A stretch of DNA of 58,425 nucleotides, filler included, from Jimgerdemannia flammicorona (lineage: Eukaryota): assembly GCA_003990765.1 (NCBI GenBank). It is 2 parts of 2 records of this genome, joined end to end, with 100 filler letters (N's around TTAATTAATTAA, not from the genome) between each part and the next. Parts side by side here need not be neighbours in the genome. Positions count along the whole stretch, not along the records: positions 29,286 to 58,425 come from RBNJ01000513.1; 1 more part is not named here. One strand, given 5' to 3'. The notes under the pieces were generated by a model. That model saw nothing but the letters and a program-made list of their open reading frames with translations. It made no database searches and was not told the DNA's origin. This document shows positions 17,836 through 56,900 of the stretch, piece after piece (position 1 is the first letter of the stretch; the number at the start of each line of letters is the position of its first letter). A program made the position numbers and the translations under genes.

Positions 17836-17841
<6 letters not shown>

Positions 17842-17852
17842 AGGTTAAGATT

Positions 17853-23402: not shown

Positions 23403-24890
23403 TGTCATGTAGTGGTCACTAAGTCCTTCAAATATGTCAGATTCTCTCCAAGGTATATCTCTTAGACTAACCTCAAGTTTGTTATAAGTAAGTTCTTATT
23501 AGAGTGCCTTCCCAAGGTCTTATAGTCCTCAAACTTCTTATCTTTAAACTGTCTTGTTATCTCTTAGATTGCTAAGTTATAAAGCTAAATATAAATTTCA
23601 ATAACCAAATAAAATACTGGAATACAGAAAACTATAGTTATCTGTATAAGTGGTTGCATAAGTTTAGGATATCAGTAGAATTTTGGTGGTATAGAAAAAG
23701 AATATCAGAAGAATTATGAGTTATATAAGATCAGAATGCCAGAAGAATTACAGTTATACAGAAAAAGGATGCTGGTAGAATCTGGTGTTACCAAGAACTT
23801 AGAGTAGAAATTTCAGGACCATGGGGGCTTTATCTTCATCACTATTAAGGCCAGAGGTTAGAGATAGAATGTCTTCAAAGAAGATGAGGTCTGTGAACAT
23901 TTCATCTATTTTGTATACTTCATGCATCTTACATATGTTGTGCAGGATGACATCATCACCAATGAGATCATCATGTTCAGTGGTAGAGAGAACAAGAAGG
24001 TCTGGGACTCTTCATCATAACATTCTCTTCAACAAAATAAGGAACAAATGTATAGCCTTGGAGAGGTTTAACCCAGATACTGGGGCCTTGGAATACTGAG
24101 ATCAATTGTTGCAAAAATTGATCTGGGTTGTCCTGGATAGTATACCAGAAGTCTTCTACTTCATTACTATTGAGAGTAATAGTAGACTGAGCTTCTGTAG
24201 CCACTATGACCTCTAGTACATTGGTGTGGCAAGCTGACAGTTTCTTAAAGTCTGAGATCCTAGTATACTCCAATTTGGGGATCAACTATGGTGTATGCCA
24301 GAAGACCTGATGAATCTTCTTTGCTATCCTTATTTCATATCTATCCATGGGAGTAGTATCTTGAATCTCCCAGGGGCTGGCCTGAGGGAAATTCCAGCAG
24401 AGAAGATTTTCTATTTTATACTTCTGCCATATTCAGAGGCATTTGGTAGCAATGGTGATCCTTGTTTCCATTTCATGGCAGTAGAGGATATAATTATAAT
24501 GGTCACTAGTACTCAGGTTGATGCTAGGTGTCCTTCTTATATGGGTTTTCATAGCTCTTCTAATGTCTTGGAATATCCAATCCTGAACTGAGGGGCCTTG
24601 GTAGTTCCTGGACCTTGAGGTTTGGCAAGCAGCAGGTATTTTATTTGTAGTAAGATTTTAGAACTATTTCTGTAAGCTTTGTTTGAATTGCTGCTACTGC
24701 AATTTCTTGATTCTTCTTTTATATTCCTTGAGATGCCTGTCTTGTAGTTGCAATAACTCATGGTTGGTCATCATTGCTCATCTTATAGCCCAGATGAGTC
24801 ATGCTGTATGATCTTCTCATACTCCAATCTGGTAGTATAAGGAAAGGCTGTCTCTTATGCTGATATCATTATTCTGAGGTCACTATTACA
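23403..24890 (-). mobile_element. Solo LTR of gypsy family A carrying the LTR ORF (about 23799-24639)
   Basis: TG...CA termini, ATAT on both sides and no internal domains. Contains IPKLEY...LISVFQGPSIW. Confidence 0.9.
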
Positions 24891-25786
24891 ATATATATAT
24901 TCATATATAATGTATATATTCTTAATAAGAGTAATACTAATTGGTACAAGTTCAAGCTAAAAGCCAGCAAGAACATATTTCTTGACTCTAGGATTATACA
25001 AATATTATATATAATATATAGTTCAACAAAAAAGAAAATTAGAAACTCTGTGTAAATATATCTATTGGAATCTCTACAATAATATCTCAGTCAGTATAAA
25101 TATAGCAATCAGTACCAGCCTCTCCAAATAAAGAAAAAATATTTTTCAAATATAGCCAGTTGAAAATTTTCTGCTATAGACTAGAGTTATCTGAGCAAAA
25201 AATAATAGAAATTAAGAATGATAAGATCTCTGATAATAATAAAAGGTCCTCTACAAAGAGTAAGCAAAGATACTCTAATGTTTACTGAGAAACTTATTTC
25301 AATTTAGAGAGTTATTGGAATATTCTAAAGTTATCTCAATATAAAGATCATATGAGCTATGTTAAGATATATGAATATATATTTATTATAACTTCTAATA
25401 AGCCAAATATATAATAAGTAATAATTTTTCCTAATAATATGAAATAAAAGTAAGTTATAGATAAAGAGTATAATTCACTTATTGAGAATAGTATATAAGA
25501 TCTGGTACCTCTTCTGAGCAATTAACAAGCTATAGAATGATATTAGGTCTACAAGATTAAGTACAAGAATAATAAAAGTATAGAGTAATATAAAGTATGT
25601 TTTATTGCTAAGAGTTATTTGTGAGATTATAATATTGACTATAGTGAAATATTTTTTCTAGTATTCAAGCTTACATTACTGAGAATACTTCTTAGAATTA
25701 TTACTATATATAATTTGAATATTTATCAGATAGATATAAAGATGACTTTTCTCAATAGTAATATAGTGTGACATACACAATTGACA

Positions 25787-26959
25787 ATGGAGTACCAGTG
25801 ACTGCTAAGATCAGACGACATAATGGCGTAACAATCAAATAGACAGCCTGACCCATTAAGTGATCATCCCAAATGAAGACAAGATGATCCAAGCCAAAAT
25901 GAAGACCACATTATTTAAGGAACCATACTCCACCTCAAGGATTGGCACTAAAGAACCAAGTACCCACCACACAATATCTCCCATTCGCTGAACCAACCAG
26001 ACCTCCCGCTGCTCTACCCCTTTGCCTGGCCCAATGACCCTGATCTTTGAAGCATTAAGAAGGCCATCTGGCACCCAGATACTTCCGAACACTTGAACTT
26101 CTACACTGAGGACCTTGGACACTTCATCAACTACTGGTATATAATGACCCAATAGCTCAAAGATACTACCGAACGAATGACCCTCTGGCATGACTATGAA
26201 ATTGGACACTGCCTTCGCAATGAGACTCAAGAAGGCGACCAGGAAGACCTCATTGCCGAAATGTTAACCACCAGCTGGCTAATCAAGAGAGCCCTCCATG
26301 TCCATCAAATCTTCTGCCATATTCCTTGGGCTATAGCACACTTGCAAGGAGTAACAGCTGGCAGTCTCTCTCACCTTTCAACTGAAGATGCTGACTGGAT
26401 AGAATCTGAAGTAGCCAATGCTATTGGCAGCAACTACATCGCTATAAGAAGCCAACAAACTGAATCTACTCAGCCAGGTTTCCACACCACCCCACTCCGA
26501 GACAACCATCAAGATCACCTAATGAGTCTTATGGAGATATTTGAAGGACCGCCCATCACTATAGAGACACCCATTGGAGCTACCCCAACCACCCACCACC
26601 CTGTCAGCCACAATTCACACCTCATCATTTGGGAACCGAATTAAGAAGAAGCCCAAGAAGTTCCTGTCTTTGAAGAGGAGGCCCAAGAACTCCAAGACCC
26701 TGCCCCTGAAGAAACCCCCTCTGACACTGAAACTGATGAGCCTTCAGAAGAAGAAGAGGAGTAACAGAGAGTCTACCAGTCCTCTGTCCGCATTCAAGCT
26801 GTTCAAGGGTTGGAGAATGTTGTTGAAGATGACTGGCCACTTTTCTACCCCCTCACCTCTTGGCCAGTGCTTCCCCCCTTTGAGGAGAGATATGATGAAG
26901 AAGAAATCACAACCCAGCAAGATTTGCCCACCATGGATGAAGGGTACTATTTCCTCTAG
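25787..26959 (+). pseudogene. LTR-encoded protein, family C homolog (up to about 390 codons, several internal stops)
   Basis: ATGs at 25787, 25823 and 26177 and the TAG at 26957 share one frame. The core aligns to the family-A LTR protein and the tail is acidic. Confidence 0.7.
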
Positions 26960-27310
26960 AGTACCGCCCATCAGCCATAAGAACCCAGCTTTTGTCAGCA
27001 AGTCCGTTTCCAGTGTTGCTACCCAGTACCACCATTTTCAGCATTTTGTCAGCAGGTCCAAATCCAGTGTTGCCACCCTCCACAACCACTTCTGGCAACA
27101 ATCATCGTATCATGTCAGCCCATCCGAATCCAGCATTGCTATCCTCTATAACCCAATCTGTAGTAAACAATAGCCTGCACCTCGCATCATACAAGCCAAT
27201 AGCATAGCGAAGTTCGCCACAACATAGTATACCTTAGCCTTAGTCGCGCCCCCTCCCCCATAGCTAGCAAACTTGTATAAATAACCCATATTCTTAGAGT
27301 GAATAAACCT

Positions 27311-27826
27311 CAGTCAGCTTGTGTTTAAAAAGTAAAAAGGATTACAAAGAAACCACTGCCTCCAAGAGACCGGAAAATTCTGAGAACAAGATAACAACCT
27401 AGAGTAATGGATCGCTCGGAAGTTTGAGTTAAGGAATTTCTCTTGCCGCCTGAATTTCAAGTTTTGCCGCCACGAAAAGGATTCAAGACCACGGACCACC
27501 CACAATTCAGTCAGTTCTAGTTTACAAAGAAACCACTGCCTCCAAGAGACCCGAAAATTCTGAGAACAAGATAACAACCTAGAGCAACAGATCGCTCGGA
27601 AGTTTGAGTTAAGGAATTTCTCTTGTCGCCTGAATTTCAAGTTTTGCTGCCACGAAAAGGATTCAAGACCACGGACCACCCGCAATTCAGTCAGCTTGTG
27701 TTTAAAAGTAAAAAGGATTACAAAGAAACCACTGCCTCCAAGAGACCAGATAAATTCTGAGAACAAGATAACAACCTAGAGCAACAGATCACTCGGAAGT
27801 TTGAGTTAAAGAATTTTCTCTTGCCA
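27311..27826 (+). repeat. About 180-196-bp tandem repeat (about 2.7 copies) in LTR C
   Basis: TTACAAAGAAACCACTGCCTCCAAGAGACC recurs at 27342, 27522 and 27718. Confidence 0.9.
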
Positions 27827-29185
27827 CAGAAAGAAAGAAAACGTTACCTGACTGCCGCCATTTGACCGCCATTTGACCGCCATTCAGACCGCCGCCATTC
27901 AACTGCCATTCAGACTGCCGCCATTTGACCGCCATTCGAGATTCAAGACCCGGAAACCCAAGGATACCCAGCTAAAGAATACTAGACTGCCAAAGACAAG
28001 ACCGCTGCCAAAGACCTGAATGACTGCCATGAACCATTTAAAGTCAAGACGGAGGAGCGAGCTGTAAACCTCTGTTTCCTGACCTACTGCGCCATGGACC
28101 ACTATAATTGACCATATAAAGAGCAAGACCATCAAGACCATTGCCGCATAAATTCAAGTTTGCCACCAAGTTAATCGCCACCAGGAATGCCCTTTTCCAC
28201 TGGATATTGAGCCATTGAACAATCAAACGACCTCATCCACTAAACAATTGAGCCACCATCATTGAACGATCTCCTGCTATTATTATTACCGCACGAATCG
28301 AACAACCTGTCACATGACCATCAACTTGTAATCATCGCGAATGCATTCAGTTATATATTGCATGCTTCACCAGTGGCACACATTGAGCCGTGCAGTTGAA
28401 GTTCATTATACATAACCAATGCCACATTTTGGGGGCTCAACTGGGAAAGTTTTCAAAAGACTTGACCATTTGGCTCAAGAACCCAGCTATCTACAGTGGA
28501 GAACTTAGCAGGACCAAGTCAGCAACTGAACCAGGGGCAGCAACAGCCCTCCTCAGCAGAAAAGAAAGCCCACACCCTTGTCAGAACAGTAGCCAGGACC
28601 CTACTCAACACTAGTAGCCAGAAAACCGAATCAGAAGAAAGAAGTGACCCAGATTACGGTTTGACTTCAAGAGAAAGGAGACAACTCAGAGAGCAATCAG
28701 AACCGCCCCTTCAGATCCAAGACTTAGGCCAAGAAGAAGAAGAAGAGGATATCCCCGAGGGGTATCAGACCCTTATCCATAGGAAGAACTCAGACAGGAG
28801 TGACTACATAACTACTGTTGTTACCTGAGTCACTCCACTAGACCAGGTATACTTTGAAACATCAGAAGGAGAAGAGGACTACCATCCATATCAACCAGAG
28901 CAAGATGACAATTGGGGATCAGAGCATCAAAGGGACGAATTCAACCTATACTATTATCCAGACAGCGACACTGACCCACAACAAGGCAAACCAGACCTCA
29001 CTGCTTCACAACAGCAAGGGGCAGACGAACTCACTATCAGTTATATCAGTCCACTCCCACCATCAGTTGCTCGAACTTCAGTACTCTGGTCACTCACACC
29101 TCACCACTATCACCAGTCAATCAGAAGATCTCCACCACTACCCAGGACCTCTCCCACAGCATTAATTAGAAGAGCCAGATTACCC

Positions 29186-29285
29186 NNNNNNNNNNNNNNN
29201 NNNNNNNNNNNNNNNNNNNNNNNNNNNNNTTAATTAATTAANNNNNNNNNNNNNNNNNNNNNNNNNNNNNNNNNNNNNNNNNNNN
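29186..29285. other. Artificial contig spacer
   Basis: 44 N + TTAATTAATTAA (stop codons in all six frames) + 44 N = exactly 100 nt. Confidence 0.95.
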
Positions 29286-30934: not shown

Positions 30935-33082
30935 CTATATCTATGTTTTAGTCAGTATAATAATCAGTACTGTCAATATCTCTAATAATTCCAGTGATAA
31001 ATCAAAATTATTATCAACTACTATATATACTTAAGTCAGAGTTATCTGAGCCAAGAATCACTGAGATCAAAGATGATAACAGTGAATTCTCCAATAATGA
31101 GAAATCTTCCATTAAGGGTAAGAATAAGCAAAAGCCAAAGCATTAGCCCAGGAATAAGATATATTCAGAATTAGAAAGTTATTGGAACATATTAGTGAGC
31201 TCTAGATAGCAGTAATGTCAAGACTATGTGAGCTATACTAAAGCATATGAATGTATATATATCATAATATCTAGTAAGTCAAATATATATGACAAAGCTA
31301 TAAGCAATGCTGATAATAAAAAATAGTAATATGTGATAAATAAGAAATACAATTTGCTTATTGAGAATAGTACCTAGGATCTAATACCCCTTCTGCTAAA
31401 TTATCAAGCAATCAGATCTAAGTGGGTCTATAGAATCAAGTATAAAAGTGACGGAAGTATAGAGTAGTATAAAGCTCATTTTATTGCCAAGAGTTATTCA
31501 TAAGATTATAGTATAGACTATAACAAGACATTTTTGCCAGTATTCAAGCTTACTTTGCTTAGAATACTCCTTGCAATTAGTATGATATATGATCTCAAAA
31601 TTTATCAAATAGATATAAAGATAATGTTTCTAAATAGTGATATAGTTATCAAATTATATATCTGACAATTACAAGAATATAAACTATATAATAGCCCAAA
31701 TAGTAAGCTTATATGTAAATTACACAAAAGACTATACAGTATTAAGTAAGCAGTATAACTATAGAATAAAAGAATCAATAAGCATCTATTTAACAATGGG
31801 TTCACATATTGTGAAGCAGATAATTATATATATGTCTAATATTATAATAATAGCATAGTATTTATTAATATATAGGTTGATGATATAATTATCATTACTA
31901 GTAAGAACAGGCTTAACAGAGTAAAGAAAACCCTATACTGAGAATTCAAGATGACCAACATGAGTGACATATCCTTTCTTTTGAAGATATCAATTATATA
32001 TAATAGGAATATATATACTATATATCTCTCATAAGAAACTTATACCAAAGCCATTCTTAAATGCTTCAATATAAGTGAATGTAAGCCTGTGAGTACCCCA
32101 ATGGAGACTTCTATAAAGTTAAGGAAGCCTAATAATATGCCTGAGAATGATGACAATATGTTTACTAAAAATATTCCCTATTGACAAGCAGTTGGTTCTC
32201 TTATATATCTCATACTAAAAATAAGATCCAACATATTATATACCATAAATAAGGTGGCACAGTACTCCTTCTACTATAATAATTTATATTAAAATACCAT
32301 TAAGAGGATTTTCTAATACTTAAAGAGATCTATATATTATATACTTATATTGGATAGTAATATTAGATTAAGTAGGAGCAATGATAAGAGTAATGATATC
32401 TGACTATCTGGTATATATAATACCAATTGGGTCAGAGACTTAGATAATCACTAGTCTATAACTGGATATCTCTTCTATATTGGCAAAAACAACAAAGGGT
32501 CTATAATCTTGTGGTAAATATATAAGCAATCTTTCATTGTAATATTATCTATACAAGCTGAATATCAGGTTTTATCATTGATAACAAAGGAAGCCATCTG
32601 GCTCTACAAACTATTAAAGAAACTTAGATTTATACAAAAAAGCACTATACTATACCAGGATAACCAGTTTATAATTATACTTACCAAGAATCTAGTATAT
32701 TACAATAGAATAAAACATATTAATATATAGCATTATTTTATATGTAAATGTATAAAAACTGATACTATATATCTAGAATATATATATCTCTATAGAGTAT
32801 ATAATTGTAGACTTATTGATCAAAATCTTTCCAAAGTCAAAGTTCAAGCAATATACTAAATAAATGGGTCTTATGAGATATATACTAGTATACAATTGAT
32901 TTCAGAATACTTTTTGACCTGTGAAAATTTCTACATTAGTTCAGACCTATATTATCAGTTTTTTACTATATTTTTTATCTATTTTTATATTTATAAGCAG
33001 AGAATTTTGATCTTTTGCAGTTATCTAAATAGTACCCTATTAGTTATATGTATATAGTTTACTCTAGTTTGCTTCTATTTTA

Positions 33083-36839: not shown

Positions 36840-39760
36840 TTACAATTTGGCTAGCAGCTGGTTTCCATCCTTGGCGGACTCCATCAACTCGCGATACAGT
36901 GCATCAATCTCGATCCTGTACTTTCCCGCGCATTGGGGCCGCTTGACCTTGAGACTGAGAGCGATCATTCATGTTATATACTCGGTAAAAGATTACAGAA
37001 AAGATATTGCAGGTGAAGTCAGTGAACAATGTAAAATTTTCCGAAAGTCTTACGTTGGCGTCAAAAGATCATTCTCAATAGAGAAGGGGACTGTGTCGAT
37101 GTAAATGGCCTTGACACACTCGAACCTGTAAAATTGATGAACATATCAATGCGACGAGAACATAATCAATTAGAGGAAAAGGGTCGAAATAACGACCATG
37201 TCGTATTCCAGATATCCCAAAAGCCCTGGCTTCCTCTCTCCTTCCCCGACTAATTTCAATGCAAAGGAAGGTAAATCTATTACCCACCCCTGTAAGCCAC
37301 CTTCCTTTGCAGTCTTATCCATCTCTACCAATGTTGCCTTCCTCACGCGGTCATCGCGGACAAGTTCTTCGAAGGGTCGTTTAACACCAATAACTTTCTG
37401 CCCAAAAGGCACGAAGACCAGGGGGTCTGGTACAATAATGGCCACCAACTGGTTCTGCAATGAATCGCCGTGAACTGGAAAGTGGGTAAGAGGGTTCAGT
37501 GAGCACCACTGTTACATACGAAATGGTTAAAGGGCAGTATTCCGCAAGACTTACCGTAAATCTGCGAGAATATGGTGTTCTTCAAATATACGTTTTCGAT
37601 TTTCTCCGGTGCGATGTATTCACCTTCAAGAGAAAACAAGACCAAGCACAACATAAAAACACACATACACTAAAGCCCGAACCCATGCATGATTTCGAGA
37701 AAATACAGCATCACCCGCCAGTTCAAACTATCCCACACCTGTAACATACCTTGTGCAAGCTTGAAAATATTTTTCTTGCGATCAATAATTACAATCGCGC
37801 CCCTTTCGTCAATCATGCCAATATCTCCTGAATAGTACCATCCTTCCTTGTCAAGGGCCTCCTCCGTTTTCTTGGGATCCTTGTAGTATCCGACGAACAC
37901 GTTTTTGCCCCGTATGCAGATCTCACCTCGGGGATACGGGTCCGTAGCTAAATAATTCATCTCGGGCACATCCACCAGCTTGATCTCGTTACATGGGAAT
38001 GAAGAGCCAAGATGGCCTCCACGATACTCGCCAGGGTGAGTTACAGAGGCTGTAGCACAGGTTTCGGTCGCGCCATACCCTTCATAAATTTCACAGCAGA
38101 AAGCGATACGAAGGAAAGAGAGGATCTCTTTGGCGATGGGAGCGGAGCCACAGCAAATGCTACGGACACGCCCACCAAGAGCGAGGCGCATCTTGTTGAA
38201 AAGAAGACGATCCCATATAGGGTGAGTAAAACCGCGGCCGGCTTCGAGGTTGGCAAGTTTGTCGGCAACAGCTTTGCGGGCGAGGATCCCAACGACACCA
38301 GGTGCTTCGACAGACGAGGAAACTATTTTCGCGTAAATACGATTGAGAAGGCGAGGGACGGAAATCATCACGGTTGGTCTGAGTGTTTGCATATCCTCGA
38401 CGAGAAGGTTGATGTCGCCGCTAAAGTATCCAATGGCGGCGCCAATTTTAATGGCGCTCAAGTCGCACATACGACCAAAGATGTGCGCAAGTGGTAGGTA
38501 GGAAATTACAACATCTTCTTGGCGGAACGGCATAGTAAAGGTGGTACCACTGGCGGAAGCAGTGAAATTTTCATGGGTCAACATAGCACCCTGAGATGGA
38601 ATGAAGAAAATACGACGTCCGATGAATACAAAAATCAATGAGAATATACTATCAAAATTGAACAGACTCGAGTCATCCTGAAATTACCTTGGGAACACCA
38701 GTGGTACCACTCGTATACATAATACAAGCCAAATCATCCGGTTTAGGCGGATTGTGCTTCCTCTTGTTTTTTTTGCCCAGCTCCTCAACTGCCGTAATAT
38801 CGATCAAGTAAATACCCTTCTCGGCTGCCCACGCCTTAAGTGCGCTCGCCTTTGTCGGGATATTGGGCGCGGCCCATTTCGTCGCATCGTCTTCCAAGCT
38901 ATCCATCGAGATAACTATCTGAAGTCCAGGGATCTTAGGACTGAGCTGAATCAAGCTGATTATATGATCTGCCGAGGTAATCAGGATGGGGATCTCGGCA
39001 TGGTTAATTACGTACTCGACCGTGTCAGGACCAAGGGTATCGTACAAAGAAATGGTAAAGAGATTGTATGAGGAGCACGCGGTATCGGCGATGCACCATT
39101 CGGGCCTGTTCGTGGACCAGATTCCAACTGGAAATTTTTCGAGTTTGGGGAGGCGCGCCACGGTTTCTGCGAGATGAACGAGACCAGAACCAAGGTTGGT
39201 TACCCGGTTGGCAACCTGGCGATAAGTTTGCCAGACATAGACGCCACGTTTGCCAGTTTTGGGATCAATGACACGGGTGCCAAGGAAAGGTCTATCCTTG
39301 GAAATCTTCAGACCTGGAAACAAAGTTATAGGTGAGAATCAATATGACGACGCGGAAATAATTTGATCGGAAACTTCGCTTTGATTCATCATCAATCCAA
39401 TCGGAACAATGTTATGAGACGCACACAATTTCGGGAACGAAAAGCCCGTGGTGTTCACGAGTTATAACACTACTTTTGATGATGACAAGAGAACACCTAC
39501 CGTAGCGGAAATTTTCGTAAAGGGTGGTGATCTTGGGGTTGCTAGAGATGACCAACTTGTCGGCATAGAGCGGGTGGCGGTAAATGCCTGCACGAAGCCG
39601 AGAGAATCGAAGTCAAAAGAACAAAAAATATAACTAAATGCAAATGCATCGTGTTTGTCGAGGCAAAGGAAAGAATTTTACCCGTCTGACCAGGTTTCCT
39701 GGTACCAGGAAGCTCAATGGTTTGCTTTTCCAAGCTGATTTTTTTCAGAACGGTTGTCAT
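36840..39760 (-). CDS. Long-chain fatty acyl-CoA synthetase (ACSL/Faa2-type), 691 aa, with C-terminal PTS1 (AKL)
   Basis: Exons 39760-39682, 39587-39501, 39313-38688, 38590-37750, 37623-37555, 37474-37288, 37125-37054 and 36954-36840 total 2076 nt. All introns are GT-AG and phase-consistent. Motifs: YTSGTTGVPKG, YLPLAH, GYGATE, SGDIG, DRKKNIFKLAQGEYIAPEKIE, LTPTLKVKR. Confidence 0.95.
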
Positions 39761-39945: not shown

Positions 39946-41959
39946 GGAAATCGCTCTTCATTTCTGGGTTTTTGATGCTTAAAATAGCAATAATAATTAC
40001 AGAGGGTTTTTGATTGTGAAGAGTGTTATAATGTAGGGCAGGAGGGGAGATTTGTACAGATGCCTAAATATTGACTGAATGAGTGTGAGATACTTGGAGA
40101 CCTCTGGGAGTGGGGAGACATGAGGGTGAGAAGGGGGGCCAATGGGATGACTTAAGGGTGTGATTAGTGGGGTATGTTGGTAATGAGTGGCTTATTATTG
40201 GGTAGGCTTTAGTAGTATAGGTAGAGTTGGTTAGACATTAGTTATATATTATAATAGTAACCCCAGAATGATGACATCAGCACAGGAGATAGCCTTTCCT
40301 TGCAAGCCACCAGATTGAAATACAAGATCATACAGTATACAAGATGAGCAATTATGACCCACTGTGAGTCATTGTGACCATAGTACAGATATTTTGAGAA
40401 ATATAAAAGAAAGATCAAGGAACTATAGTAGCAGTAACTCAATAAGACCTACCAATTCCAAAATAGCTCAAAGACTTACTATAAATGAAATGTCTGCTGC
40501 TCACTAAACCTCAAAATCAAGGAACTACCAAGGTATCTCAGTTGAGAAAAGAATGTTCTAAGACATTAGAAGAGTCATGAGGACCTATACAAGAAGAACT
40601 CCTAGTGTCAATCTGAGTACTGGTGACCCTTATCACTATATCCTCTATTGTCATGAAATAGAAATAAGAATCATCATTACTATCAAATATCTCCAAATAT
40701 AGCAGGAGTATAAAATAGGAAACCTCCTCTACTAAGAGTTCCTATAGGCTAGCTCTCAAGAGTTATAAAATACCATTTTTATAAATATATATAAAATAAG
40801 AATAGTTAAGAAAATCTATCAGATCTTTAGGTATACATTATAGTCGATCCCCAACTTGGAGTATGTTAGAGTCTCAGACTTCAGAGACCTGTCAGTCCAC
40901 CATATCAATATACTAGAAGCCAGGATAGCTATAGAAGCTCAGTCTATTATCACTCTCAATAGTAATGAAGTAGAAGACTTCTGATATTCTATCCTTTAGG
41001 ATAACTCAGACTAATTTCTGCAAGGATTGATCTCAGTATTCCAAGGCTCAAGTATCCAGGTTAGACCTCTCTAAGACTCCACATTTGTCTCCTATTTCAT
41101 GAAAGAGAACTTCATAGACTGGAGAGCTCCAGATCTCCTTATTTCTGCTACTACCAAATGTGATGATGTCATCAGTGATGACATCATCCCACATGATATA
41201 TATGAAACATATGACCCATGTAACCTATATAATAATGATGATGATGAGATGGATGAAATATTTGCAGACCTCATCTCCTTCAAAGACATCCTGACCTCTG
41301 ATGAGGATGAAGCCTTTATAGTCTTAAACATTCTGCTCTAAGTCTCTTAGTTATACTGAATAATACCAGTACTCTTTTTCTATATAATAGCTATTCCTTC
41401 ACTGGTATTCTGATGTGACTCAGAATTATTCCAGTACCATTTTCCTATACCACTGAAATTATATCAGCATCTTGAACCTATACAAATATCAGTACCAATA
41501 CTAGAACTTAATAGTTTTCTATATTCTGGTATTTTATTTTAGTTATTGGAATTTATATTTAGCTTTATATCTTAGCAACTATTGAATTATATTTTGTATA
41601 AATACTTCTCTTATTTCCTCTGAAATAAAGACAGTTCTGGTTTACTTATACACAATCTCTTGTAAGCAATCTAAGAGATAATAAGATAGTTAAAGATAAG
41701 AAGTTTAAGGACTATAAGATCTTGGGAAGATACTCCAATAAGAACTTGCTTATAATAAATATGAGTTAGTCTAAGAGATACATCTTGAAGAGAATCTAAT
41801 ATATTTAAAGAACTCAGCAACTACTATATGACAACTTGGTATCCATTGACTAGTGATTCAAGATGAATTCCTCACTTTTAAGCTGAAAAATGAACAACCA
41901 CTACAACAACTACTCTGACTACAAGAGTCACCCCTGTAAGAATTCAAGATAAGATAGAA

Positions 41960-44900
41960 ATGCATTCTCCTACAATCTATAGATATACTACTGAAGAGTT
42001 AATCCTGACCTTCATTGAAGACTTTGAATAATTCACCACCATATGAGCCCTTAGTGTAGATGCACAATTAGCTCTTCTATCTGTCAGCCTCAGAGGATCT
42101 ACTAGAGATAAGTTCAATATAGTCACTATTACTGATAATAGTATAGCCAAACTTACCAACATGAAGGCCTTCCTTAGAACAATATACTATATTGAAGAGA
42201 TCAAGCAAGCTCTCAAGGATCAACTCAATACTATCTGCCAGGGACTCAGTGAAGATTCCAACTCATTCTATATCCAAATCTGCTACTAGATTGTCTTGGC
42301 TAGCTATGATGATACCCTCAAGGAATAAATAGCAGATTCAACCTTCCTCAAAAAAGTTCACTCTGAAATTGCTCTAGCAATCCAGTCTACCCTAGCTGCA
42401 CTGACCCTTGATCAGAAAGTAGTCTTTGTATAGAGATATTAGACTGTCAGACATCCGACCAAACACTCAATAGAGAAAATAACTGGCATCAAGATAGAGC
42501 TATCAAAGCTAACTAGTATCATATCCATTACAGTTATAAATAGACAACTATCTCCACTTACCCCCAAGACAGCCAAAGCTGACCCAGTGGAGAAACTTGC
42601 CAAGTAGTTCATTGAGATGACTGCATATCTTAGTGATGTTATTAGAGAAGTCTGAAGTACCAACAGGAGACTAGTGTAGAGATTTGTAGCTGCTATAGAA
42701 GAATGCAATATTACATACTTCAGATGTAGAGAAGAAGGCCACTATGCAAAGAGTTACATAACTAAAACAAGATGCAAAGCCCAACCAAGTAATGCTAGCA
42801 GAACTAGAGAATAAACCAATATAGTAGTCATCAAGGAGATTGGTAATACTGATGATAAAGAATACTATGAGAAGCTTGAATTCTACCCTGCTACTAAAGG
42901 TACCAGAACCCAGTCTAAGCTCTATGACAAGAAGAGTAACAGCAAGCCAGTTGGAAGACCAAAGAAGACTCCAGCTGTTACTATTCAAAGTAAGACCCAA
43001 CTTAAGAAGATTGATCAAGATATAGAGTTAGATAAAGCTGCTCACCAAATTATTGAAGGCACTACTTCAGTCTCAGGAGAAAGCAAAAGTAAGAAGAAAT
43101 AGAAGCTGCACAAGACCAAGATCCACCAGTATAATATCTACAAGGACCTCAAGGAATAGAAGGTCAATACTACTTTTGGATAGCTAGCCAAAGTCTCTGC
43201 CTTCAGACAGTAGTTGAGAGTATGACTTACAACTACTGCCAAGAATCAAGAGTACAAGATTGTAGAAGCTCACAATGCATAAGAAGAATCCAAAAACTCA
43301 GGCAAAGAATCTGAAGACTAGTGCAAAATATCAGCTTATATCTCATATCAGATCAAAGATTATATCTTTGATGCTATCATTAATACTGGTGCTGAAGAAT
43401 GCCTTATGAGTAAGAAGACAATTAACTACCTAGGCTGGGACATCAAAGAGTCCACCAAGATGGTCTATGTTATAGCAGATGATATACAAGCTACTCTCCT
43501 TAGCAAAATTCAAGAAGTCCCCATTAAGATAAGAGGAGCTACTATCCCAGTAGATGTGATTGTTACAAGCACCACCAACTATGACATCCTCATTAGTAAC
43601 CAATAGCTTCACAAGGCCAAGACTATCATTGACCTCAATGCTCAGAAGATACAGATCAACTATAGAGGAAGAAAGATATGAGTCTCTATTAATGTCCACA
43701 AAGGAGTTCTACCAGATATAGAGAAAGGAGATAAGAAGGATATAGAAGTCTTCATATACTTAGTAAACAAGAATAAGAACAAAACACCTAAGCTCACAGA
43801 TGAGTAGTAGTATAACAAGATCATCAATAGCTATGCCCCTCAAGGAAGATGTCTTCATGGTACTAGGATATACTGCTCTGAACACCTGAATGACTGCTGG
43901 TCCTATATTAGTGAAGTTAGGAAAATCTGCCAAAAGAAGTATGAGTAAGAAGCCACTAAAGAAAAAAGAAAAGCCAAAGAAGATGACCAGCCCCTAGAGC
44001 TTTAAGCTGACAGTGATGATGAGAAGAAACAAGAACCAGACATCACCCTCAAGGTCAAGAAGTTTTACCCTGAAGCTAAGATTCCAGAATACAAGATTGA
44101 AGGAGCCATAGGAATAGACCTTGCTAGTATTCAAGATGCTACTCTCAAACCACAGACAACCACCCTACTTGGTACTGGAATTGGAGTCAAGTTGCTAGAG
44201 AACTATACCAGAATTATTAAGACCAAGAGCAGTCTGGCCAAAAGTAAAATCTCAGTTGAAGGAGGAGTAATTGACTCTGATTACACTAGCAAGATCTTCC
44301 GTATAGTCAGAAATTACAATCCCACCACTCTATTTGAAGTCAAGAAGCATGATAGAATTGGCCAGATACTGATCCATAAAATCAAGAAGCCCAAGATCAC
44401 TGAAGCCATCAAACTCATTAAAACTAAGAGAGGAGAACAAGGCTTTGAATCTACTGGAAGAGGAGCCTATACCACTACTAAGATTACCAAACTTAAGTAC
44501 AAGAAAGATAAGGACTAGAACAAGTACACATATACCATTGGAGAAAACTTTCTCCTGGAAGAACAACTTCTTAAGATCTTATATCAGAACAAAGAAGTAC
44601 TGGCTACAGACTTTAGAGATATCCACAATCAAGAACCCAAGTACTATTATGAAGTTGACACTGATGATACCAAGCCTATCTATCAGAAAGCCAGACCTAT
44701 ACCACCTGCCTACAGAGAATGGCTGCAAGCAAAACTCAAGAAAATAGAAGAAGCTGGAATCATCAAGCAAGTTATCAGTCTCTGGGCTTCATCTATTGTC
44801 CTTACTCCAAAGAAAGGAAGCAAGCCTGGAGAGTTTGTGCCAAGACTCTATATTGACTATAGGAAGCTCAATACAGTCACCAAGAAGGATAGGCAGCTCT

Positions 44901-45979
44901 TGCCAAATATTCAAAAAATCCTTACTACTCTTGGAAGTAAAGCCAAATACTACACTACTTTAGATCTATTCTCAGGCTTCCATCAGATTGGTCTCACTCA
45001 AGATGCTAGTGAGAAATCAGCCTTCATCATACCTGATGCCACCTATATCTATCTGTAAATGCCATTTGGAATGTGCAATACTCTAGCAAGTTTTCAGCAA
45101 ATAATAAACAGAGTCTTCAGTAATGAGATTGGAAAATAGCTCTTTGTCTATGTTGATGATATGATCATCTTCAGCAATACTATATGGAAACATGTCAATT
45201 ATATACAGCTAGCCCTCAAGAAGCTCAAGGAGTATGACCTCTACATCAAGCCTAAGAAATGCAAGTTTGTAGCTCAGGAAATTACCTACCTAGGACACCT
45301 CATCAACTAGACCAGAATCTATACAGACCCAATGAAGATTGAGGCTGTTGCAGCCTACCCAAGACTCAGAACAACTATAGAAGTTCATGCCTTTCTTGGA
45401 CTGGCCAGTTACTATAGAAGATTCATCAAAGGATACTCCAATATTGCAGTACCTATCTATGAGCTACTAAAGAAGGAAACCAAATTTGAATAGACTAAGG
45501 AATGCCAAGAAACCTTCAATAAACTCAAGACCAGATTGACCCAAGTATCTATCCACAGAAGACCAGATTGGAACCTAGAATTTATCCTGCAGACAGATGT
45601 GAGTACTATAAGACTTAGAGCAGTTCTAACTCAGAAGAAAGATAGATATAAATATATCATCTCCTATATAAGCCAAGATATCTACAGAGTAGAACAGAAC
45701 TATATGTCATGCAAGCTTGAATGCTTAGCAGTAGTTTGGGTAGTAGATAAGTTCCACTACTACCTAGCTGGGAAATACTTCACTATTTAAACAGACTATT
45801 CTGCTCTTGCCTGACTGTTCTATACTCTGAACCCTAAAGAAATATATGCCAGATAGATCTACAGACTGCAAGAGTATGGTTGTACTATCAAGCATTACTC
45901 AGGAAGAACCAATACCAATGCTGATGCACTCTTAAAGATACTCTGAAACACCCCTATCAAGACTATTCAATATGAATAA
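41960..45979 (+). pseudogene. Gag-protease-dUTPase-RT-RNase H polyprotein of gypsy A (1340 codons, internal point-mutation stops)
   Basis: The span is 4020 nt with no net frameshift. It contains a decayed CCHC knuckle (about 42716), AIINTGA protease (about 43373), dUTPase (44050-44460), YIDYRKLN/YVDD RT and QTD..NADAL RNase H. Confidence 0.85.
44050..44460 (+). pseudogene. dUTPase domain of gypsy A
   Basis: All five trimeric dUTPase motifs are present in order: AIGIDL, KTKSSL, GGVIDSDY, DRIGQ, RGEQGFESTG. Confidence 0.9.
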
Positions 45980-47177
45980 GGAGTTATACTATGGATTAAT
46001 TAGCTATCTTAGGCAGTAGAAGATGCCCAACTACCTCAAACCCTGGACAATCACCATCATCAACCAGACTTAGAAATAGTTTGAACTAGACAACACTATA
46101 CTCAGAAAAGGAGAAAAGCTAATAATACCCAAATACAAGAAGTATCAAATAATGAAGAAAGTATATAAGTAAGGATACCTAGGAGGAATCAACACATACA
46201 ACAAGATAAGAAGAACCATATGATGGCCCAAGATGGAAGAAGACCTGCACCAATTTGTCAAAGAGTGTGACAAGTGCCAAAAACAGAAACAAGATCAGTA
46301 AGATCAGACACCTGAGTTATTAAGAATCAAGCCTATCCTCTTCCACTACATCACAATAGATATCATTGGGCTACTATCAGTAATACTATCAGGAAACTGC
46401 TATATTATAGTTATTATAGACCTCTTTACCAAATGGATAGAAGTGAGAGCATTACAAGAAACCAATGCCCTCTCTATAGTCAACTTCCTGTACTGAGAAA
46501 TCATCTACTGCTACAAGACACCAAGACAAATCACCACAGACTATAGCATAGTATTTGTCAATAGATTTCATGAGATAATATATCAGAAATATAAGATTCA
46601 GTACATCAAGACCACCACATACTACTCTCAAGGAAATGAACAGACAGAAAGAACCAATAAGACCCTCAAGAACATCTTGACAAAAATCTCAGAGATATAT
46701 GAGAATTGGGATAACTATCTCTCAACTGCTCTCTCTGTCCTATGAGATATATGGTCACAGAGCACACACTTTACCTCAAGAGAACTGCTCTTCAGAAAAG
46801 AAGATTCTGATAAAACCTTAGCCATAAATCTAGACCTAACTTAGAGATAGATCAATGCAGAAATCTGGAGACTACACCAAATCAGAAAGAAGGCTGAAGA
46901 TTATATCATCAAGTTATAAGCACTGATAAGAAAGGATACAGAAAAGAATTACAAGACTCTAGAACCCATCCAAATTAGAGAAAAGGTCCTATTGTATCAA
47001 AATATAGTAGAAGCCTCATGGTCATGAAAACTGGAGCCCAAATGGAAAAGACTCTTCTATATACAAGATATCAAGAGAACTATCTTCTGACTTAGAAAAA
47101 TCTCAGAGATCATACTATCTACCATGGTATATAGGAATAGACTTAAGAAGTACCATGAACCTATACCAGAGAAGTAA
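45972..47177 (+). pseudogene. Integrase of gypsy A in a separate reading frame
   Basis: From ATG 45972 (MNKELYYGLISYL) through the decayed HHCC zinc finger (..WPKM..CDKC), DIIG, ITTD, ERTN and the C-terminal RNRLKKY; 1206 nt in frame. Confidence 0.8.
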
Positions 47178-47775
47178 AATGTAATAACTGCTCATGAGGT
47201 TCTAGTCTGCAAATCATAATAGCATATTCCATGACTAGCAGGCTATCTGTCTGGACCATTCTCTAAGAGATATGGTACCAGCAACTACTTATCTATGAGA
47301 CTTTCAAAGCCAGAGAAATTTGAACTATCAACTGATTGGTCAAGATCAGAATCAGGCCCTTGCTCTATATAAAGAGAGCAATTCTTCACCATTATACCAA
47401 AATATATAGGGAGGATGACAGCCCATAAATATCACTTTTTGACCTCTTACCAGAGGTTATAAGATCAGTAAATTTTTCAGGACTAGACTAATAAATAAGA
47501 ATATTTAAGAAGATCCTTATTCAGGAGAAAGATGTAATAATGACCCCAGAATGATGATATTAGCACAGAAGATAGCCTTTTCTTATAAGCTATCAGATTG
47601 GAATACAAGAAGATCATATGGCATATAAGATGAGTAATTATAATCTACTGTGAGTCATTGTGACCACAGTACAGGCATCTTGAGGAATATAAAAGAAGAA
47701 TCAAGGAATCACAGTAGCAGCAACTCAACAAGATCCACTAATCCCAAAATAGCTCAAAGACTTACTACAAATGAA

Positions 47776-48612
47776 ATGCCTGCTGCTCATTAAACCTTAA
47801 GATCAAGGAATCACCAAGGTACTTCAGTCAAGGAAAGAATATTCCAAGACATCAGAAGAGCCATGAAGACCCATACAAGAAGAACTCCTAGTATTAACCT
47901 AGACACTGGTGACCCTTATCACTATATCCTCTATCACTATAAAATGGAAATAAGGATCACTATTGCTACCAAATACCTCTAAATATAACAGAAGTATGAA
48001 ATAGGAAACCTCTTATACCAGGAGTTCCCACAGGCCAGCCCTCAAGAGTTACAAGATACCACTTCTATGGATATATGTGAAACAAGAACAGCTAAGAAGA
48101 TCTATCAGATCTTCAGACATACATTATAGTCAATCTCCAATTTGGAGTATGTTAGAGTCTCAGACTTCAGAGATCTATTAGCTCACTATATTAATGTACT
48201 AGAAGCCAGAGTAGCTACAGAAATACATTCTACTATCACTCTCAATAGTGATGAAGTAGAAGACTTCTGGCATCCCATCCTCCAGGACAACCCAGACCAA
48301 TTCCTACAAAGATTGATCTCAGTATTCCAAGGCTCAAGTATCCAGATTAGATCTCCCCAAGGCCCCACATTTGTTCCCTATTTCATGGAAGAGAACCTCA
48401 TAGACTGGAGAGCTCCAGACCTCCTTGTTCTCACTGCTACCAAATGTGATAATATCATCCCATGTAATATATGTGAAATATGTGACCTATGTAATCTATA
48501 CAACAATGGTGATGATAAGATAAATAAAACATTCATGGACCTTATCTCCTTTGAAGACATCCTGATCTCTGATGAGGATGAAGCTCCTATAGTCTTGAAT
48601 ATTCTGCTCTAA
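47776..48612 (+). pseudogene. LTR-encoded protein (family A) in the 3' LTR; twin at 40490-41341 in the 5' LTR
   Basis: 279 codons from MPAA to NILL*. The provided ORF 48142-48612 is its C-terminal part. Confidence 0.75.
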
Positions 48613-49360
48613 GTCTCTTGATTATACTGAATAATACCAGCACTCTTTTTCTATATAACAGCTATTCCTCTACTGATATTCTAATGTAACTCAGAATTAT
48701 TTCAATACTATTTTCCTATACCACTAAAATTATACCAGTATCCTGAATCTATATAACCATTAGTGCCAATACTGAAACTTAACAGTTTTCCATATCCTGG
48801 TATTTTATTTTAGTTATTGGAATTTATATTTAGCTTTATATCTTAGCAACCATTGAATTATATTTTGTATAAATACCTCTCTTATTTCATCTGAAATAAA
48901 GACAGTTCTGGTTTACTTATATACAATCTCTTGCAAGCAATCTAAGAGATAACAAGATAGTTAAAGATAAGAAGCTTGAGGACTATAAGACCTTGGGAAG
49001 GTATTCCAATAAGAACTTGCTTATAACAAACTTGAGTTAGTCTAAGAGATATACCTTGAAGAGAATCTGGCATATTTGAAGAACTCAGTAATCACTACAT
49101 GACAATATATATTTAAAGATAAAAGATAGACTTGAAAGAGTGAATAGCAAGATGGAAGAGGTTGATGATAGATGTTATGTCTGACTGATGGAAGGGGTGA
49201 AGCCCCCAGGGTAGTTGCTATTGATATCTAATAGAGAGAATTTATAAGTAGAATAGTAGAAGAGTTATAATAATTAATAGTCTAGTAGTATTTAATAAAG
49301 AAGAGTGGGGGAAAGAGAGTGTATTGAGATAGAGAGAGTAGAGTAAGAGAGGGTTAGGGC

Positions 49361-53060: not shown

Positions 53061-53948
53061 TAAATAATAACCACAACTATATAAAATACTCTAAAGATTT
53101 AAATAAATAAATCTTAGTTCAAAATTGAAATCAAAAAGTAAAAGATAAGTCTATCTACTATACTTTAAGAGATATGTCTGCTAAGAGTTACTTGATCTAG
53201 GAAGAATTGTAATACTTAGGAGAAATACTCACTCTAAAGTCACTTCTAGAAGATTGTGAGCTTGATATCATTTTTTACTTCAGTTTACATTTTGATATAA
53301 AGAAGAGAAGTATACTATCTTACTATAAAGCTAGTTTATCTGATATATCTTTATAATTAATCTATTTATAAAAATAAAGCAGTCTTTGATATAACTTTGC
53401 TCAAGAATCTATACTACTAAAGTTATTTACTTTATCTAAAAAATCCACCAATTTAAAAAGAATTTATATTATCTATCATATTTAAGAAATTTATCAAATC
53501 TACCTCATTATACAGAATCTATACTATCTGAGAAATCTGTCAAATCTATCTTATTATATAGAATCTGTATTAGTCAAGATATCTACCAAATTTACTATAT
53601 TATATCAAATTATTACTAAATTAGAAAATTGCCAAAATTATCTATATTTATAAAATAGAGAAACTATAGAATATTTTATTACTTTTTGACAAAGTAACTA
53701 AAGGCTCAAGTTAAACTATATAGTAGCTCCAATCTTATAATTTATCTCTATTGAGCTAGTATATTATAATACTTATAATATATATAGGTAATATAAGTCT
53801 AAAAAGAATAATTAGAATTAGATCTATAAAAGGATTACTAGCAATATATTCTGAGAGTTTCTGTAAGGATTGTATAGAAAACAAAGTATTTTAGCAACTG
53901 TTTGAAAAATGATTAAAGTGTATCTCTAGAATTCTAGATCTTATATAT

Positions 53949-56900
53949 TATAATAGTTGATCTGAATTAAGAATATAAATCAAGAGAATAGATATTTAAT
54001 TATAATATCTAAATCTGATTTCCAAATATAGCTTAGCCTTATAAATAGTAGTTATATTTTACAAATGTAGAAAACTTTGGCAACTATAAAGATTCTATAT
54101 ATTGAAATACTCATAATTATTAAAATCTTATTAGATATGAAAAGAAACTTATAGGAAATATAGTTATAACTTAACCACTTTATAGCTAGCAAACTTATAT
54201 AAATATCTCCAGTATCTAAAGTAAATAAATCTCAGATCAAAATAGTTTAAAGTAAAAGAAAAAGTAAGAGAACTAGTAAGCCTGTGAGCAGATATACATA
54301 CTTTGAACTTATCCACTCCTATATTTAAAGACTCTGTAGAGTTAAAGAAGATCAAGTTTTCAAGATACAGAAATCCAACATGCTTATACAGTTACAAATC
54401 TACTATATTACAACTTAGTGTCTATTAGCTGATGATTTAAGATAAATCTCTTACTTTCAAGCTTAATAATAAGTAACTACTATTACTAAACTAAGATATC
54501 TAGACAAAATAGATATGAGACTACTGGTATTCTCTAGATATACTTTAGATGAATCAATTATTATCTTTCTTGATAATTTCAAGCAGTATATTATCATAAG
54601 GACTCTGACAGTAAGACAGTAAGCAGCTCTCATACTCTTCAGTCTCTAAGGCTCTGCAAGAGCAATATTAACAGCTATAATCCATATAGGAAATGATAAC
54701 AATACTATACTAATAGTATAGAAGGTCTAGCTCTAAGCTACTTACTATATAGACAAGATTAAGTAAGCTCTGAAGAATCAGCTCAATATAATATATCAAG
54801 GAATGAGTAAAGATCTAAATACATTTTACACCAGAATCTGATTTTAGATAATTTTTACAGATTATATAGCCACTATCTGAGATCAAGTAGCCAAAATAAC
54901 CTTTATAAAGAGAGTCTATCTAGAGATAGTCATTGCTATCTGCTCATCACTAGTAGTATTAGATCTATAATAGAAGATCACTTATACTTAGTAATACTGG
55001 ATATATAGCTGGACATCTACAAGACTATAATGAAAAGAGTTACTAGAGTTAGAATTAAAGTATCTAAGACAATCAGTATAATCCCTACTATAGTAATTAA
55101 TTAAAATATATCTTAGCCAAAAGCTACTGAGCAGTAGAAAAATAGTAACTCTATGGAGAAACTTACTAAGAAATTTGCCAAAATAACTACCCACCTAGGA
55201 GATGTGATAAAAAAAAATCAGGAAGAGACTATCACCTAGTTCAAAACTTTGCTATTACTTTAGACAAGAAGAGAGATATCTGCTATGTATATTTATAAAG
55301 AAGAGAATCACTATTTATATGAATATATAAGTGAAACTAAGTATAAGATCTAGTTAAGTAATATTACTTGAAATAGAGAATAAGTCAATATTATTACCTT
55401 CAAAGAAATTGGAGAATTAGATGAAGAAGAATATGTAGGAGGCCTACTCTATACAGACTACTAAGAAGAATATTTATAAGAAATTCTACAAAAGACTACC
55501 AGGGAGACTTAAGAAGAAATCTGTAAAAAAACAGATAGAGACTACTATAGAAAGCCAAGCTAAAGAAATAGACTAATATATGAAGTTGAAATAGACTATT
55601 TAAGATATTATTTAAGAAACTACTCTAGCTAGTGAGAGAAAAAAGGAGAAGAAGCTTTGCAAAACTAAGACCTTTAAGTATGATATCTTTAAGGACCTCA
55701 GCCAATAAAAAGTCAATACAACCTTTGGCCAGCTAATAGAAATTTCTATATTTAGATAGTAAATGAGATATAGACTTATCAAAACAATTAAGGAGCAAGA
55801 TTGGAAGATAACTAAGACCAATAATATTCAAAAAGACTCAAGAGAAGAAAGTAAAGACAATTGCAAGACCTTTGCCTATATAATCTATCAGATTGAAGAT
55901 AGAGTCTTTGAAGCCATTATTGATACTAGAGCAAGAGAATGCCTTCTCAAAAAGAAAGCAATAGACTGCCTAGATTGGGAGGTTGAAGAAGTAATCAAAT
56001 TAGTATTCATTATAGCAGATAGTATAAGAGCTATATCTTTAAGAAAAATCTAAAATATATATTCCCATCAAGCTTAGAGAAGTAAACATCTTAGTAAATG
56101 TAATTATAACTAATACAACTAATTATGACATTTTTTTTTTAGCAACTAATAGCTTCATAAAGCTAGAGTAATAATTGATCTAAATATCCAGAAGATATAA
56201 ATTATCTATTAAAAACAGAAGATATAAATCCTCATCAATATCAATAAAGAAGTTCTATCTAAAATAAAGAAAGAAAAAAGTGAGCAAGAGGAAGCTTATA
56301 TAGTGACTATATAGAAAAAGAAAAAGAAAGTTGAATGAATCAGTAAAAAAGATTAGTATAAGAAGATTATAGAAGGATACATATATACTATAAGGAGTCT
56401 GTTCTCACAGAATTAAGATATACTATATAGAGCATATTAATAATTACTACCAGTATACTAGCAGAATTAAGAAGATCTACTATGAAAGAAGACAGAAGGC
56501 TCTTGAGAAATAGAGAAGAGAAGAGAAGTAGAAAGAAGAGGATGATGAACCACTAGCTCTCCTAGAAGATAGTAATGATGAAGAGAAAATTAAGATCAAA
56601 ATTCAAAAAATCCACCTTAATATAGTTCTACCAGAATATAAGTTAGAGAATGCAGCTGGAATAGATATTACTTCAGTAAAAGAAACTATATCTGAACTCT
56701 AGACAACTACCCTACTTGTAACTAGCCTGGAGATGACTATTCTAAAAGACTATATCAGAATCCTCAAGACAAAAAGTAGCCTAGCTAGAAGTAAAATTAC
56801 TATAAAAGGAGAAGTCATCAATTTAGATTATATTGGAGAAATACTACTCATTGCTAGAAACTACAACTTTACAATTCTATTTTTAATTAAAAAAAAAAAA

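Follow-up and report, generated by a model that had tools for sequence, protein, structure and literature searches.

Can a long terminal repeat (LTR) of a fungal retrotransposon carry a protein-coding gene? The question was raised by a DNA stretch of 58,425 nucleotides (nt) from Jimgerdemannia flammicorona (assembly GCA_003990765.1), which joins parts of two records (positions 29,286 to 58,425 come from RBNJ01000513.1) and is called the window below. An initial annotation of this stretch had described, at 47776-48612, a protein of about 280 amino acids (aa) encoded entirely inside the LTR of a gypsy-type element, gypsy-A. The host belongs to the Endogonales (Mucoromycota), an early-diverging mycorrhizal lineage. 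As judged from intact relatives and frame-specific constraint, the open reading frame (ORF) of the LTR is almost certainly a real protein-coding gene.

The reading frame of the gypsy-A LTRs and its intact relatives

Comparison of the region 47401-49250 with the window by blastn revealed four copies of an LTR of 1.5-1.6 kb, two on each strand. The four locations given by the initial annotation were thereby confirmed, two of them being on the minus strand. The copies and the element to which two of them belong are as follows.

47533-49105, plus strand: LTR copy A, the 3' LTR, delimited by blastn and junctions; target-site duplication (TSD) TATAT at 49106-49110
40250-41834, plus strand: LTR copy B, the 5' LTR, 84.4% identical to A by blastn; TSD TATAT at 40245-40249
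1-1262, minus strand: LTR copy C, 79.6% identical to A by blastn, truncated by the window edge, with internal deletions in its non-coding part
23397-24890, minus strand: LTR copy D, 73.6% and 92% identical to A by blastn
41835-47532, plus strand: gypsy-A interior with primer-binding site (PBS) and leader, gag (CCHC), protease, dUTPase, reverse transcriptase (RT), RNase H and integrase, all decayed
47523-47532, plus strand: polypurine tract (PPT) AGGAGAAAGA, directly before the 3' LTR (A)

Copies A and B are the LTR pair of one gypsy-A element of 8.86 kb with TATAT at both ends, a duplication which is weak when taken alone because it is AT-rich. Pfam analysis of the read-through frames gave the domain order protease, dUTPase, RVT_1, RT_RNaseH, Integrase_H2C2 and rve, and a CCHC knuckle was seen in the gag frame. 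The PBS-like leader after copy B is decayed and could be aligned to the PBS TTGGTGCCCATTGGCTGG of a sister family present in the window, gypsy-B. By its LTR pair and TSD, its PBS and PPT and its domain order, the carrier is a Ty3/gypsy LTR retrotransposon. Copy D is bordered by TATAT at both sides, adjoins neither a PBS nor a PPT and looks like a solo LTR, in agreement with the proposal that the frame is also spread through solo LTRs. The sequencing runs listed as containing matching sequence were soil or rhizosphere metagenomes (DNA contigs) and a single run of unspecified type, all with small shares and none of RNA. When contigs from four of these runs were aligned to the window, they proved to be DNA of relatives and displayed neither starts nor ends nor reliable joints. 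Apparent 7.3-kb skips of metagenome contigs relative to the gypsy-A element were rejected as joints; they are LTR-to-LTR cross-matches.

After translation, one sense frame of about 280 codons was found in all four gypsy-A copies, as had been described. A fifth, divergent copy (E) was found by tblastn with six family proteins and by hmmsearch over the six read-through frames, which also recovered the same four loci.

47776-48612, plus strand: ORF of copy A, 278 codons, four internal stops at codons 6, 69, 71 and 118
40490-41341, plus strand: ORF of copy B, 11 internal stops
221-1020, minus strand: ORF of copy C, stop-free, with a single 1-nt deletion
23802-24639, minus strand: ORF of copy D, start codon changed from ATG to ATA, two stops, a 2-nt deletion
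25974-26917, plus strand: copy E, from a divergent subfamily of the LTR ORF, with an ATA start, stops and a frameshift; 78% identical to P0014

All five ORF copies in the window are dead. The open stretch announced for copy C is present, with a size of 210 codons from stop to stop in the downstream part (221-853) instead of 197 aa at 221-814. Each stop (TAA, TAG or TGA) replaces a codon for which other copies have CAA or TGG, and is therefore a transition product. They had been said to fall at different positions in different copies, which is only partly true: codons 6 and 71 are both interrupted in A and B, codon 69 in A and D, and codon 118 in all three of A, B and D. These recurrent stops could have arisen in parallel; those common to A and B could instead be older than the insertion.

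Intact natural relatives were used in place of the genome-wide LTR consensus that the initial annotation had proposed. A word-index protein search with P0001, the open part of copy C, gave seven matches. An exhaustive HMMER search of 1.84 billion representatives gave six at E<=0.001, five of which are true relatives of 138-342 aa; the sixth, a low-complexity repeat, was discarded. A profile search for relatives yielded 12 proteins and a cluster look-up 23 members in eight clusters; these members come exclusively from metagenome contigs of JGI/IMG or ENA and are either unnamed or labelled 'hypothetical protein'. Full-length open relatives were obtained for four subfamilies, with lengths of 271 aa (P0005), 323 aa (P0024, P0026), 342 aa (P0011) and 324-331 aa (P0014, P0019, P0023). 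The family thus falls into four or more subfamilies that are 27-55% identical to one another. Relative to P0005, identity amounts to 74-79% for members of the same subfamily, to 47-56% for the 323-aa proteins and to 23-48% for the remaining two subfamilies.

The metagenome contig L001 (1345 nt) contains an open frame of 323 codons. When it was compared with the window LTRs by blastn, the ORF alone aligned (65-71%); outside the ORF, the contig has diverged beyond recognition, short core motifs excepted. Nei-Gojobori proportions of nonsynonymous and synonymous differences (pN/pS) were calculated in frame and in the two shifted frames. Between L001 and copies A, B, C and D, pN/pS was 0.35-0.49 in frame versus 0.81-1.46 in the shifted frames, these ratios being rough because pS is saturated (0.69-0.77). 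Between copies C and D, the values were 0.40 in frame versus 1.01 and 1.03. The control was the LTR pair A and B, whose divergence postdates insertion and amounts to 139 transitions and three transversions; its values of 0.53 in frame and 0.48 and 0.76 in the shifted frames are neutral, without a frame-specific signal. The presence of the signal among the copies and its absence from the control indicate that constraint acted during diversification of the family and not after landing. Furthermore, indels are multiples of three in 9 of 11 events in the ORF versus 3 of 18 in the LTR flanks, and the two non-triplet events in the ORF are private deletions of 1 and 2 nt. As read from these comparisons, the gene is shown to have been kept by purifying selection while the family split into at least four subfamilies. 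The protein of about 280 aa described at the outset is consequently borne out, both by intact relatives of 271-342 aa and by frame-specific purifying selection, and two of the checks that had been named for it, a low ratio of nonsynonymous to synonymous change and indels in multiples of three, both came out in its favour.

Probable position in U3 and candidate promoters

Where does the gene lie with respect to the transcription signals of the LTR? The sister family gypsy-B, a natural ORF-less control in the same window, allowed the two sets of signals to be set side by side.

3476-3960, plus strand: gypsy-B 5' LTR, about 485 bp, without ORF; PBS next to it at 3961-3988, partner LTR at 21691-22192
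53935-54400, and 30710-30457 on the minus strand: further gypsy-B LTR copies
48866-48900, plus strand: core of the gypsy-A LTR (copy A), TGTATAAATACC (TATA) followed by AATAAA at 48895, common to the gypsy-B LTRs and L001
47688-47695, plus strand: upstream TATA-like box TATAAAAG (copy A), 88 nt before the ATG, a putative promoter

The gypsy-B LTRs are about 500 bp long and have in common with those of gypsy-A the TGTATAAATA...AATAAA core, of the form ...GCAAACTTGTATAAATAACC...(15-20 nt)...GAATAAACCTCAG, the LTR end CACTA..ACAA and the PBS; the leader and the start of gag are 67% identical in nucleotide sequence between the two families. No trace of the LTR ORF was detected in the gypsy-B LTRs by tblastn with six family proteins or by hmmsearch of the six read-through frames, and the TATA/AATAAA core is there the sole candidate promoter and poly(A) signal. 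In copy A, TATAAATA at 48868 and AATAAA at 48895 are both downstream of the ORF stop, at distances of 254 nt for the TATA core and about 285 nt for AATAAA. The same order, ORF then core, was observed in copy E (core TGTATAAATAACC..GAATAAA at 27274-27307, 93% identical to the gypsy-B core) and in L001. Since the ORF is upstream of a core common to ORF-less LTRs, it very probably lies in the unique 3' region (U3), where the initial annotation had placed it.

A second candidate promoter precedes the ORF itself. The box motif GAATATAAAAG is present upstream in all four gypsy-A LTRs, in one of them with a single mismatch. The distance from TATAAAAG to the ATG is 88 nt in A and B and 65 nt in L001, where the box is at the very start of the contig; in copy E, TATTTAAG occurs at 25912, 62 nt before the start position. 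The start context is CAAAATG in copy C, and an A at -3 is also found in L001. Located 65-88 nt ahead of the ATG, the conserved TATAAAAG box may well provide the ORF with a promoter of its own, although we stop a little short of calling this probable.

With such a promoter, an ORF mRNA of about 1.2 kb would be initiated inside the LTR and ended by the LTR's own AATAAA, about 285 nt past the stop, so that any single LTR, solo included, would be a self-contained transcription unit. The genomic RNA would be driven by the second TATA and start past AATAAA, and would include the ORF solely as a piece of its 3' untranslated region. As AATAAA stands between the second TATA and the expected start, retroelement biology leads us to infer that the genomic RNA would be free of the signal at its 5' end and would meet it only in the 3' LTR. 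If the internal promoter is real, solo LTRs would be potential expression units and not inert scars, which would bear on the regulation of genomes rich in transposable elements (TEs) such as those of the Endogonales.

Carried one step further, the LTR could be regarded as an autonomous gene plus a terminal repeat, with promoter, ORF and poly(A) signal within about 1.2 kb of U3 and the adjoining repeat region (R), a view for which the sequence gives us only doubtful confidence. If it holds, the genome would acquire with each insertion two copies from which a trans-acting factor can be expressed, and solo recombination would leave one. The outcome would be a dispersed, deletion-proof pool of a novel type of retroelement regulator which could serve ORF-defective or ORF-less relatives in trans, a situation without precedent among LTR retrotransposons or in fungi.

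The initial annotation had compared the arrangement with the U3 genes of retroviruses, the sag gene of mouse mammary tumour virus (MMTV) and the nef gene of human immunodeficiency virus (HIV). The part of this comparison that concerns the location in U3 stands, whereas the subgenomic RNA that it implied does not fit as well, the sequence hinting instead at an LTR-internal promoter belonging to the ORF. If expression were nevertheless of the sag/nef kind, the ORF would be devoid of its own promoter and be translated from a spliced subgenomic RNA started in the 5' LTR, the leader of which is joined to an acceptor upstream of the ORF in the 3' LTR. The retroviral genes are expressed in this way, and the ORF is within the 3' part of the genomic RNA whatever the model. 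An excerpt of PMC10309623 likewise has CERV, from the Cer1 element of C. elegans, produced from a spliced mRNA. However, inspection of the copies and of L001 revealed no conserved acceptor before the ATG, the 68 nt before the L001 ATG are purine-rich, and the conservation of TATAAAAG would be left unexplained; we therefore regard this mode of expression as unlikely. One candidate acceptor, CTAAT...TAG upstream of the copy A ATG, was rejected: the motif reads CCAAT in B and C, is deleted in D and is not conserved in L001.

The upstream TATAAAAG might also be the promoter of the genomic RNA itself. In this case, R would extend over about 1.2 kb, and the genomic RNA would have the ORF as its first cistron, comparable to the plant ORF0/ORF1 that precede gag. 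The conservation of the upstream TATA would agree with this arrangement, and extra ORFs upstream of gag are known, for example ORF0 of Retrosat2 in an excerpt of PMC3485330. But the second TATA and AATAAA are nearly identical in the ORF-less sister LTRs of about 500 bp, in which no other candidate promoter is available. Moreover, an R of 1.2 kb with an active poly(A) signal would terminate genomic transcripts inside the 5' LTR, and gag would have to follow a cistron of 280 codons. Placement of the ORF in R is accordingly quite improbable.

The product and its possible role

What kind of protein does the gene encode? With Pfam, no family was obtained for the LTR ORF from two window pieces, nor for 11 family members at E<=0.01, the best matches being unrelated (E 0.026 and 0.088). 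Against the sequences of PDB, two profiles produced no match at E<=10. The search of PHROGs reached E of about 0.1 at best, ESM Atlas gave nothing usable (best feature score 0.83, structure TM<=0.33), and no relative of the LTR ORF was found in two scans of viral contigs. Alignment of the family profile with the element's own gag by hhalign gave a probability of 0.1%. In Foldseek searches of PDB and BFVD, nothing reached E<=0.001, and the best Z of the wide fold search with VIA-align was 3.9, all with query models whose mean pLDDT (predicted local distance difference test) was 52-53; because these models are poor, the three fold searches show nothing either way. A transmembrane segment was not detected in any of four full-length members, in which the maximum 19-residue Kyte-Doolittle mean is 0.64-1.07. 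Two observations of the initial annotation, that the protein resembles no gag, pol or env product and that it has no transmembrane segment, are in agreement with these Pfam, hhalign and Kyte-Doolittle results.

Both AlphaFold models show, at low confidence, a helix (residues 18-31) ahead of a helical core that covers about 47-150 and 173-184; a small beta unit (about 200-212) and a disordered tail follow. The 45 N-terminal residues carry a net charge of +5 to +8 in three subfamilies. The tails, 60-127 residues long, have a net charge of -14 to -26 and contain 18-40 hydrophobic or aromatic residues. The conserved motifs are W-x-[ED]-Y-E-I, H-Q-[IV]-F-R-H, N-P-[IL]-L-x-D-N-P-D-Q and F-[QE]-G-P, and the C-terminal [IV]-L-N-F is found in three of the four subfamilies. 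The tail of copy A contains a candidate leucine-rich export signal, LISFEDILI, which was rejected because P0005 does not conserve it.

This make-up would suit a soluble, probably nuclear, factor acting in trans through an acidic effector tail, and does not suit a membrane protein such as Sag. Of the two roles suggested by the initial annotation, transactivator and silencing suppressor, the acidic tail would by its composition be compatible with the first. On account of the basic N-terminal helix, the conserved helical core and the long disordered acidic tail, we tentatively propose that the product is a soluble trans-acting factor which aids expression of the element, for example as an LTR activator or an RNA-handling factor. 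It would represent a protein family of no known fold, the only plausible client of which is the element itself.

Could the gene be a mere passenger, a host or foreign coding sequence captured in U3 which does not serve the element or serves only itself? LTR retrotransposons are known to capture ORFs, according to excerpts of PMC6431247 and PMC7264820, and the sister family gypsy-B evidently transposes without the ORF. Against this, no host or other homologue was found among the 1.84 billion representatives, which include the annotated proteins of this fungus (its acyl-CoA synthetase was found there). In addition, unless the transposing lineages benefit from it, it is difficult to see why the gene should have stayed open and constrained across four subfamilies, which makes the passenger hypothesis improbable. 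Finally, that the shared frame is not a gene but owes its existence to chance or to the composition of a repeated non-coding LTR, as the broken state of every window copy and the lack of matches in Pfam, PDB and fold searches might suggest, has in our opinion practically no chance of being true and is already refuted by the open frames of 271-342 codons in several divergent relatives, by a coding signal specific to this one frame and by the triplet indels of the ORF.

Taken as a whole, the data are best explained by an accessory gene in U3 with its own promoter and a trans-acting product, an explanation whose chances we put at about even. Several points weigh against it, in addition to the saturation of pS mentioned above. 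The function is deduced from composition alone, with no support from the Pfam, PDB and fold searches, and the mean pLDDT of the two AlphaFold models is as low as 53.3 and 51.8. The N-terminal charge is not uniform, being +1 in the fourth subfamily (P0011). With one mismatch allowed, the 11-nt pattern of the upstream motif has 8 matches in the window versus 3.9 expected; for this reason the motif is weak when taken alone, and the promoter role rests on the 8-nt motif. Copy E is only a putative LTR copy, being single in the window and having an assembly gap behind it. Lastly, LTRs A and B of one element have the stops at codons 6, 71 and 118 in common, so the element may have transposed with its ORF already broken, in which case the gene was not needed in cis. 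Read in this way, and not as parallel C>T hits, the common stops would imply that the gene is dispensable or can be provided in trans.

Complex retroviruses are distinguished by their accessory genes. In MMTV, sag is located in U3, and HIV nef and the bel/bet genes of foamy viruses overlap this region. Like sag, the gypsy-A gene is a sense ORF wholly within U3, and hence present in both LTRs and retained in solo LTRs. The two differ in host and carrier, here a fungus and an env-less Ty3/gypsy retrotransposon, and in the possible upstream promoter of the LTR gene. Sag is a type II membrane glycoprotein, whereas the LTR protein has no transmembrane segment and, among the 11 members searched with Pfam, no sequence similarity to Sag. 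Nef has an N-terminal myristoylation signal, Met-Gly; the full-length LTR proteins (P0005, P0010, P0011, P0014, P0019, P0023, P0024 and P0026) all begin with MP, and Pfam gave no Nef match. Foamy viruses express Tas (Bel1) from an internal promoter. The likeness to Tas/Bel1 and Bet would consist of a 3'/U3 accessory gene, a dedicated promoter distinct from that of the genomic RNA (putative here) and an acidic C-terminal region of the type employed in transactivation (here a matter of composition). The differences are that no sequence similarity was found with Pfam or PDB, nor a fold match from models of pLDDT 52-53, and that the gypsy-A gene and its putative promoter are both entirely inside the LTR.

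Among Ty3/gypsy elements, the additional ORFs (aORFs) of plants, ORF0 of Retrosat2 and CERV of Cer1, a regulator of its element's own RNA, are similar in being lineage-restricted extra proteins whose fold is not known. They are encoded between the LTRs, whereas the present gene occupies the two LTRs of a single element as well as a solo-like LTR; the excerpt of PMC3485330 places ORF0 upstream of gag-pol, and that of a review of large TEs (PMC6431247) describes capture downstream of pol. According to the same excerpt, dUTPase is situated between protease and RT in elements of fungi and rotifers. The gypsy-A dUTPase has this position, which makes the element similar to the fungal dUTPase-bearing Ty3/gypsy elements, for which the excerpt mentions no gene within the LTR (PMC6431247). 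In a survey of the full-text literature, with most subscription journals outside its scope, neither an LTR retrotransposon with an LTR-internal gene nor a paper on LTR elements of the Endogonales was found, and the 'LTR-encoded' matches that were checked concerned MMTV Sag. The U3 layout is therefore already known, and what is new is a U3 accessory gene in a fungal Ty3/gypsy element, a new protein family and possibly an LTR-internal promoter of its own. The MMTV-sag-type layout, otherwise known mainly from a few retroviruses, would be extended to retrotransposons, and long LTRs would be worth screening for genes and not merely masking.

Decay of the copies and other features of the window

After insertion, C>T/G>A decay inactivated the copies and stripped them of nearly all CpG. 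Most of the derived changes are C>T (or G>A) and occur in CA, CT and CC contexts, and the observed/expected ratio of CpG is 0-0.12 in the four LTRs, 0.2 in the whole window and 1.04 in a host gene located among the decayed TEs:

37670-39338, minus strand: host acyl-CoA synthetase gene (AMP-binding, long-chain), with at least one intron

The first exon of this gene is 100% identical to a Jimgerdemannia flammicorona protein and 81% to an Endogone sp. protein. As its CpG content is normal at less than 1 kb from an LTR, the pattern points to a cytosine decay that is directed at TEs and spares the gene, whether methylation-driven or similar to repeat-induced point mutation. Soil metagenome contigs differ from the window element mostly by T>C and A>G, with C or G where the window has T or A, indicating that the window copy is the decayed one.

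Scans of the window for Rfam families and tRNAs gave no match. Two 44-N runs at 29186-29285 enclose TTAATTAATTAA, a segment which resembles the linker of an assembler or scaffolder more than biological sequence and which interrupts the element following copy E. Copy E starts right behind the first of two AT-rich fragments (25338-25767 and 31214-31646), which are 74% identical and contain the Ty1/copia-type RT motif YQIDIKMTFLN. Right behind the AATAAA of copy E, at 27310-27825, there are nearly three repeats, 90-94% identical, of a unit measuring about 180-190 nt; behind them, at 27850-27940, stands a short repeat of the CCGCCATT type, and this region, unlike the gypsy-A LTRs, retains many CpGs.

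About 12 kb (5500-18500, plus strand) are nested in the gypsy-B element (3476-22192). This insert contains two RT stretches of non-LTR type (RVT_1 E 1e-50, with a FADD motif near 9420) and is extremely asymmetric between the strands, with an excess of G over C on the coding strand (GC skew +0.36 to +0.53) and a CpG observed/expected ratio of 0.06. In the U3 of gypsy-B (3590-3680 and 21810-21910), an 18-nt unit close to CAGATGTTGAAGATTTTG occurs in three to five tandem copies, an enhancer-like array whose copy number is unequal between the two LTRs of one element.

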